IMG/VR virus record: IMGVR_UViG_2698536549_000010
Span: 1 to 16,935 of that record
DNA length: 16,935 nt
DNA from: a virus
Taxonomy: Duplodnaviria; Heunggongvirae; Uroviricota; Caudoviricetes
Strand: one strand, 5' to 3'
This document shows, piece by piece, positions 7,634 to 7,860 of the stretch. The notes beneath the pieces were generated by a model. It was not told where the DNA came from, did not search any database, and saw nothing but the letters and a program-made list of their open reading frames with translations. Both the position numbers and the translations under genes were made by a program. How positions within the stretch are numbered: the stretch's first letter is position 1; every line of letters begins with the position of its first letter.

Positions 7634-7860
7634 CCCTCTACCCCATCTACCTGAATGAAATAAACGCATATTATTCAACATGATAAGTGGGTAGAGGGCC
7701 AGGTAGAAGGCTAATAAAAGCTCTCTACCTCTTCTACCTGATTTTATCAGTTTCGGGTAGCAGGGTAGACGGCAGGTAGAGGAGCACCAAAAGCTATCTA
7801 CCCGCTGAAAGCCACGCCATTACTGACATGATGAGCATTCGGGTAGATGGGTAGAGGGGG
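7634..7860. repeat. iteron cluster, candidate replication origin
   Basis: About 12 copies of the hexamer GGTAGA or its complement TCTACC in alternating blocks: TCTACC at 7637, 7646, 7724, 7733, 7797; GGTAGA at 7690, 7702, 7764, 7775, 7842, 7850; GGTAGC at 7756. Chance expectation is about 0.1 copy in 225 bp. Confidence 0.55.

Follow-up and report, generated by a model that had tools for sequence, protein, structure and literature searches.

A GGTAGA iteron array as the probable replication origin of a helper-embedded phage-inducible chromosomal island

The Rep initiators of Staphylococcus aureus pathogenicity islands (SaPIs) bind 6-12 iterons situated directly 3' of rep around a central AT-rich region, and are self-loading (PMC9371898). 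For the island EcCICFT073, a plasmid carrying pri and ori is maintained at the restrictive temperature, whereas the pri-delta-ori and delta-pri-ori derivatives perform significantly worse (Fillol-Salom et al., 2018; PMC6092414). Helper-embedded satellites (HES; also HE-PICIs) are Gram-negative phage-inducible chromosomal islands (PICIs) that reside in a late gene of a helper prophage; the papers describing them mention an ori downstream of pri, without dissecting it (bioRxiv 10.1101/2022.07.18.500453; PMC10111431). Here we analyze a 16,935-bp stretch of DNA from a Caudoviricetes virus (IMG/VR record IMGVR_UViG_2698536549_000010, positions 1-16,935; hereafter the window), in which an array of short repeats follows the gene for a Rep (Pri-Rep) initiator-helicase. 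We read this array, with a probability of about 0.9, as the replication origin of a Gram-negative, helper-embedded PICI; the repeats are not a chance cluster; they are conserved, they vary with the Rep allele, and the segment that holds them is the ortholog of a published, functionally tested ori.

The P4 satellite is organized differently at the corresponding place. In the P4 record, the crr site (4291-4590) begins 46 nt past the alpha stop codon and is made up of a 120-bp direct repeat in two copies, each holding five type I iterons in both orientations, and the annotated ori (9086-9809) is ~4.7 kb off. The rule that an array after the helicase gene is the origin therefore comes from SaPIs and PICIs and not from P4, because P4 has crr there. 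A first-pass annotation of the window, made from the sequence with P4 as its model, had argued that the place after the helicase gene fits a satellite origin; this is correct by the SaPI and PICI precedent, but not by that of P4.

The array and its tested ortholog

The array (7637-7855) comprises 11 exact copies of GGTAGA or its reverse complement TCTACC, starting at 7637, 7646, 7724, 7733, and 7797 on the minus strand and at 7690, 7702, 7764, 7775, 7842, and 7850 on the plus strand, together with one single-mismatch variant, GGTAGC, at 7756 on the plus strand (hexamer count, both strands). The description in the first-pass annotation of about 12 hexamers in alternating orientation, often paired at 9-12 bp, is thus accurate: start-to-start spacings within same-orientation pairs are 9, 12, 9, 8/11, and 8 bp, and consecutive groups alternate in strand. 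The first iteron begins 17 nt past the stop codon of the open reading frame (ORF) at 5866-7620. Exact GGTAGA occurs 12 times on both strands of the window, and 11 of these copies are inside the array, the sole exception being at 8328; by chance, 3.85 exact copies (standard deviation, sd, 1.84) would be expected across the window, and a count of 12 was reached in none of 200 dinucleotide-preserving shuffles of it. No second GGTAGA cluster is present in the window, and one-mismatch copies are at chance level.

The EcCICFT073 pri-rep gene was located in the CFT073 chromosome, where the gap 3' of the gene is 288 bp long. This gap holds 11 copies of GGTAGA/TCTACC at offsets of 17<, 26<, 72>, 94<, 105<, 114<, 145>, 156>, 178<, 224>, and 233> from the stop codon (>, GGTAGA; <, TCTACC), compared with 17<, 26<, 70>, 82>, 104<, 113<, 144>, 155>, 177<, 222>, and 230> in the window. 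The tested ori segment was reconstructed by mapping the primers of PMC6092414: the pri-delta-ori clone stops 4 nt beyond the pri-rep stop codon, and the pri-ori clone continues as far as the start of the following ORF (its end primer, which is 1 base off the genome, was positioned by eye). From these clone ends it follows that the tested EcCICFT073 ori is exactly the segment orthologous to window 7621 to ~7925, that is, the gap that carries the array. The candidate origin is therefore orthologous to an ori already tested on plasmids beside a Rep that is 99% identical, and the plasmid replication experiment that had been proposed for the window has in effect been done on the EcCICFT073 ortholog (PMC6092414).

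The two origins share their place after the pri-rep stop, the GGTAGA iteron, a count of 11 copies with near-equal offsets and orientations, the AT-rich spacer, a conserved 20-mer, and a ribosome-binding block. EcCICFT073 differs in lacking the window's copy at 7702 and in having an extra reverse TCTACC at offset 94; its ori is followed by a small ORF and genes for single-stranded DNA-binding protein (SSB), which the window element lacks, and it occupies a chromosomal site, whereas the window element is embedded in a prophage terL gene. Compared in 60-bp bins, the window and EcCICFT073 are mostly 95-100% identical across pri-rep, apart from two bins at 85% and another at 93%, and identity falls abruptly to 38-80% per bin inside the array, with the iterons kept. 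Such divergence amounts to natural mutagenesis, and suggests that it is the hexamers that are under constraint.

The same pattern extends to nine further E. coli elements, whose identity over query 7400-7900 runs from 98% to as low as 72%. Among gap hexamers, GGTAGA is the commonest in eight of the nine and ranks third in the other (L011), where two hexamers that overlap it, TAGACA and GTAGAC, come first; in all nine its offsets are almost equal. In a 10-sequence alignment of E. coli origins, hexamer columns are 90% identical, versus 71% for the other columns, and when 12 hexamer windows were placed at random 20,000 times, no placement reached this conservation; whole-array identity to the window drops to 52-62%. 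Conservation of the hexamer array in related elements had been set beforehand as the test that could refute the origin, and its outcome is that hexamers are kept and spacers diverge. The array lies directly 3' of pri-rep in EcCICFT073 and in 10 other elements. A Shigella flexneri element whose Rep is 89% identical has 11 GGTAGA copies at the same offsets, although the sample outside E. coli is thin (three loci from a one-genome-per-species scan). The satellite family is present in 565 of 5,426 complete E. coli genomes (~10%), and replication modules almost identical to the window's are found in ordinary chromosomal PICIs that occupy different sites and have different integrases.

As the ortholog of the tested EcCICFT073 ori, the whole proposed origin, comprising the iteron array and an AT-rich unwinding element, spans 7621-7860 and is assigned to neither strand. 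Iteron set 1 (7637-7651, minus strand) consists of TCTACC at 7637-7642 and 7646-7651, both with a column identity of 1.00 in 10 of 10 aligned origins. Set 2 (7690-7707, plus strand; GGTAGA at 7690-7695 and 7702-7707) and set 5 (7842-7855, plus strand; GGTAGA at 7842-7847 and 7850-7855) are defined by hexamer scan and alignment; the 7702 copy is missing from CFT073-type origins, where an additional TCTACC at offset 94 occurs instead. Between these are set 3 (7724-7738, minus strand; TCTACC at 7724-7729 and 7733-7738, with column identities of 0.98 and 0.97), set 4 (7756-7780, plus strand; GGTAGC at 7756, which is not conserved in relatives, and GGTAGA at 7764-7769 and 7775-7780), and a lone TCTACC iteron (7797-7802, minus strand; column identity 0.98). 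The array also has a higher-order repeat of 27-30 nt blocks, with 2-3 hexamers apiece and a period of 86-87 bp; the block pair 7628-7654 and 7715-7741 is 89% identical, and the pair 7752-7779 and 7838-7865 is 79% identical.

The pairs at 7637/7646 and 7690/7702, in opposite orientations, flank an AT-rich spacer between sets 1 and 2 (7652-7689; GC content 0.33-0.40), which is proposed as the DNA unwinding element on the basis of its stability and GC content. By nearest-neighbor free energy, 30-mer stability in the gap is lowest at 7658-7687, between these first inverted iteron pairs, with -32.6 kcal/mol; the mean over every 30-mer of the gap is -38.9 kcal/mol (sd 3.0). The minimum is at the same place in EcCICFT073 and in the L015 and L016 elements, which represent two other alleles. 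Alignment of GGTAGA-type origins further identifies a conserved non-iteron 20-mer, TGAAAGCCACGCCATTACTG (7806-7825, no strand assigned), which is near-invariant in the E. coli alignment and in Shigella, though neighboring spacers diverge; it was not found in the origins of other Rep alleles examined. Downstream, the conserved block AAAACTTTTTAAACGAGGGGG followed by ATG at 7905 (7875-7907, plus strand; alignment of relatives) comprises the ribosome-binding region and initiation codon of the small ORF found after ori in relatives, and marks the 3' edge of the tested EcCICFT073 clone. The single-strand fold of the array is strong (z = -5.3), but this is no evidence of hairpin function, because inverted iterons produce such a fold automatically. 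No structured RNA family matched the window in an Rfam search at gathering thresholds, and no plus-strand terminator after rep was found in a scan of 7400-8700.

Rep and its covariation with the iteron

The Rep gene (5866-7620, plus strand; 584 aa) is identified by Pfam and Protein Data Bank (PDB) matches and by homology to EcCICFT073 Pri-Rep, with which the product is identical at 576 of 584 residues (99%). Pfam matches are to D5_N (5.6e-16), DUF5906 (a superfamily 3 [SF3] P-loop helicase; 5e-10), and Pox_D5 (3.5e-4). In a search against all PDB sequences, residues 195-433 match 7OLA, the SaPI5 PriRep5 (E 3.7e-15), which is a self-loading SaPI helicase (PMC9371898), and residues 488-576 match 1KA8, the origin-binding domain of P4 alpha (E 8e-6). 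Rep is thus predicted to be an SF3 helicase with a C-terminal winged-helix domain, like SaPI-type initiators, and its C-terminus (~488-576) is by homology a Pox_D5 or P4-alpha-type origin-binding domain. Identity to P4 alpha is 40%, and is confined to Rep 141-573 and alpha 324-756 (434 aa); a forced alignment of Rep residues 1-140 with the alpha N-terminus gives ~26%. The N-terminal module (residues 1-145) is 62-82% identical to PICI initiators with DUF927 or RepA-type helicase bodies, and looks like an exchangeable domain because it is common to initiators with these different bodies.

Within pri-rep, identity to EcCICFT073 dips to 85% at 7126-7185 and 7486-7545, against 95-100% otherwise, and the second patch includes differing residues of the DNA-binding domain (NVAEFSK vs. 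NVNDFGK). These patches suggest mosaic recombination near the origin.

The repeat sequence differs with the Rep allele. PICIs with a 605-607-aa Rep allele that is 48% identical to the window's have nine copies of GGTGAACA, which on the opposite strand reads as the P4 type I iteron TGTTCACC; those with the DUF927 Rep allele have 11 copies of AACCCGCA, and those with the RepA-helicase allele have eight copies of AAAGTGAG. A Serratia relative (Rep 53% identical) has nine copies of GTGAACA, and a Morganella relative (Rep 52% identical) has 11 copies of ATGAACA. GGTAGA has zero copies in the gaps of these five origins. The architecture, by comparison, is almost constant: the GGTGAAC-type origin has iterons at offsets 16<, 26<, 68>, 90<, 109<, 142>, 152>, 185<, and 228>, which is almost alike in positions and orientations to the GGTAGA origin. 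Two E. coli PICIs with the 48%-identical Rep, L015 (4325-4815) and L018 (5782-6068), carry GGTGAACA in a layout near that of the GGTAGA origins. Among the three proteins with the TGTTCACC iteron, the DNA-binding domains share 44-47% identity, whereas the window's domain is 31-34% identical to each. These values are consistent with a change in specificity but fall short of proof, because the helicase domains rank the same way.

Proposed initiation and alternative readings

By homology to P4 alpha and the SaPI Reps, the Rep encoded next to the array would recognize the GGTAGA iterons through its C-terminal winged-helix domain; Rep bound to the inverted iteron pairs that flank 7652-7689 would melt the AT-rich spacer and load itself onto the opened DNA, forming a hexameric SF3 helicase. 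Host replication proteins would then take over, producing satellite DNA that could later be packaged from a nearby cos site. An elaboration of this scheme, which as a combined proposal we consider doubtful, has the array serving as a fused ori-plus-crr, the 20-mer as a separate cis element, and the origin firing before excision. The ~87-bp duplicated blocks could provide the Rep-Rep bridging that P4 gets from two distant sites, and the 20-mer at 7806-7825 could be a separate, undescribed cis element, such as a priming or host-factor site offsetting the missing primase domain. If the origin fires before excision in the helper-embedded setting, the surrounding helper late genes could be amplified in situ.

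Several observations tell against the array being the origin, or against this account of it. Function is shown for the EcCICFT073 ortholog only, from which the window's spacers differ markedly, and deletion of the EcCICFT073 ori lowered colony formation without abolishing it (PMC6092414). GGTAGA in EcCICFT073 was read from its sequence here, and the text of PMC6092414 does not spell out the iterons. The initiation point within the array is one that we infer. Furthermore, the N-terminal 145 aa of Rep have no Pfam match and no detectable primase catalytic domain; 'primase' is therefore an annotation label for Rep that its domains do not support. The 'alpha-like primase gene' of the first-pass annotation accordingly holds for the helicase and DNA-binding parts, which are homologous to alpha, and fails for the primase.

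The array might instead be an auxiliary cis site resembling crr, or a copy-control ('handcuffing') site, at which replication does not start. P4 crr is at this very position, directly 3' of alpha, with the P4 ori elsewhere; the 86-87 bp higher-order repeat of the window array recalls the crr direct repeats, and the unit pattern of crr ('> < < > >') resembles part of the PICI pattern. We nevertheless regard an exclusively crr-like role as unlikely: the island has no second GGTAGA cluster to act as ori, EcCICFT073 pri-rep plus the single gap is enough for plasmid maintenance (PMC6092414), and an AT-rich minimum flanked by inverted iterons lies within the array. An additional copy-control role beside that of origin may exist.

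It is very improbable that the repeats are operators within a promoter region, bound by Rep or another island regulator, that control the downstream small ORF, SSB, and late-zone genes and have a lesser part, if any, in replication. The last iteron pair (7842-7855) does lie 20 nt upstream of the conserved ribosome-binding block and start codon, and TTACTG-N17-GTAGAT (7820-7848), as read from the sequence, is a possible weak promoter that overlaps an iteron; however, a sigma-70 consensus scan of 7400-8700 found no promoter, and PICI genes are reported to be transcribed one way from upstream promoters (PMC6092414). Moreover, it is the Rep allele with which the repeats change in step, not the downstream genes; these vary among relatives or, as in the window, are missing. 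The orthologous EcCICFT073 segment acts in replication (PMC6092414). The last iteron pair may still have a secondary regulatory role. A function in packaging, with the repeats as cosB-like sites for a small terminase subunit or redirecting protein and part of a neighboring cos, has in its favor a cos-like sequence (~8000-8030) that lies ~140 bp downstream, but has a negligible chance of being correct, given that the array stays at the pri-rep stop in EcCICFT073 and most relatives, where SSB and other genes follow; that it is upstream of cosN, whereas lambda cosB is downstream (PMC6092414); and that the repeat sequence switches with the Rep allele.

The satellite element and known systems

The window contains a ~10 kb helper-embedded Gram-negative PICI within the terminase gene of a lambdoid prophage. 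The prophage large terminase is split, with its GpA ATPase domain at 368-1375 and its GpA nuclease domain at 11394-12515. The junction core CTGGATG is present at 1366-1372 and 11390-11396 (13 of 15 bases match over 15 bp); the island between the cores is ~10.0 kb, and the terL frame resumes across the junction, with ...FWM followed by EGP.... Island genes include an integrase (1537-2775), a weak HTH_17 match (2768-2992), a Bro-N protein (3052-3630), and a ClpP-protease/major-capsid fusion (8591-10480), all in the same orientation as the other island genes; Pfam searches of six small island ORFs returned nothing beyond the weak HTH_17. The features by which PICIs and HE-PICIs are recognized are present, namely co-oriented int, AlpA-type helix-turn-helix, Bro, pri-rep, ori, and late genes, a length in the 10-20 kb range, and direct-repeat attachment sites. 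The P4 model used at first pass must be given up: the element is a helper-embedded Gram-negative PICI.

Downstream of the origin, the small ORF and SSB genes of EcCICFT073 and most relatives are missing from 7860-8400. A 46-codon remnant ORF (7905-8045) starts at the conserved ATG, and ~540 bp are otherwise non-coding save for a cos-like site. The segment 7967-8134 is similar to sequence at or close to the genome ends of lambdoid phages; window 8000-8030 aligns with the left end of the mEp460_4F5 record (CCACGGGGCGGGAGCGCGGAAAAAGGC). This cosN-like sequence, ~140 bp 3' of the origin, is probably the cos site of the satellite; it was found via phage-terminus similarity, a search for the lambda cosN 12-mer (up to three mismatches) being uninformative. 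The satellite and its helper both encode ClpP-like protease/major-capsid fusions with the same Pfam architecture (8591-10480, 629 aa, and 14024-16195, 723 aa, respectively).

The feature is already known in kind and, via the EcCICFT073 ortholog, effectively known in instance; the array adds no new principle. Its main value is in annotation, by fixing the origin, the iteron (GGTAGA), and the likely unwinding element of this satellite family. It also provides a comparative map for origin specificity, in which the architecture is constant and the iterons vary with the Rep allele, one allele being on the P4 iteron.

Compared with known systems, the element conforms to the HES/HE-PICIs of Tommasini, Mageeney, and Williams without substantive difference: it lies inside a lambdoid late gene (a gene A/terL cognate) in the same direction, and has the same zones of int/AlpA, Bro, replication (primase plus ori), and late genes. 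In SaPI origins, the iterons 3' of rep are 5-6 nt long, and those on the two sides of an AT-rich region, two or more per side, are in opposed orientation (PMC9371898); the window array, with its 11-12 hexamers, is of this type. However, SaPIs belong to a Gram-positive lineage with other iteron sequences, similarity between the Reps is detectable in the helicase core alone, and the window array has five iteron groups and a ~87-bp higher-order repeat where SaPI origins have two simple sets. P4 alpha shares homologous helicase and origin-binding domains with Rep, and crr, like the window array, is directly 3' of the initiator gene, with bidirectional iterons and a higher-order direct repeat. The P4 iteron, by contrast, is the 8-mer TGTTCACC rather than GGTAGA; P4 depends on two cis sites that lie apart, ori and crr, against one cluster in the window; the N-terminal primase domain of alpha has no detected counterpart in Rep; and the gene content and organization of the window element are PICI-like, not P4-like. 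In position and architecture the array is thus the counterpart of P4 crr, and in function it must, as in SaPIs and PICIs, be the only origin of the island.
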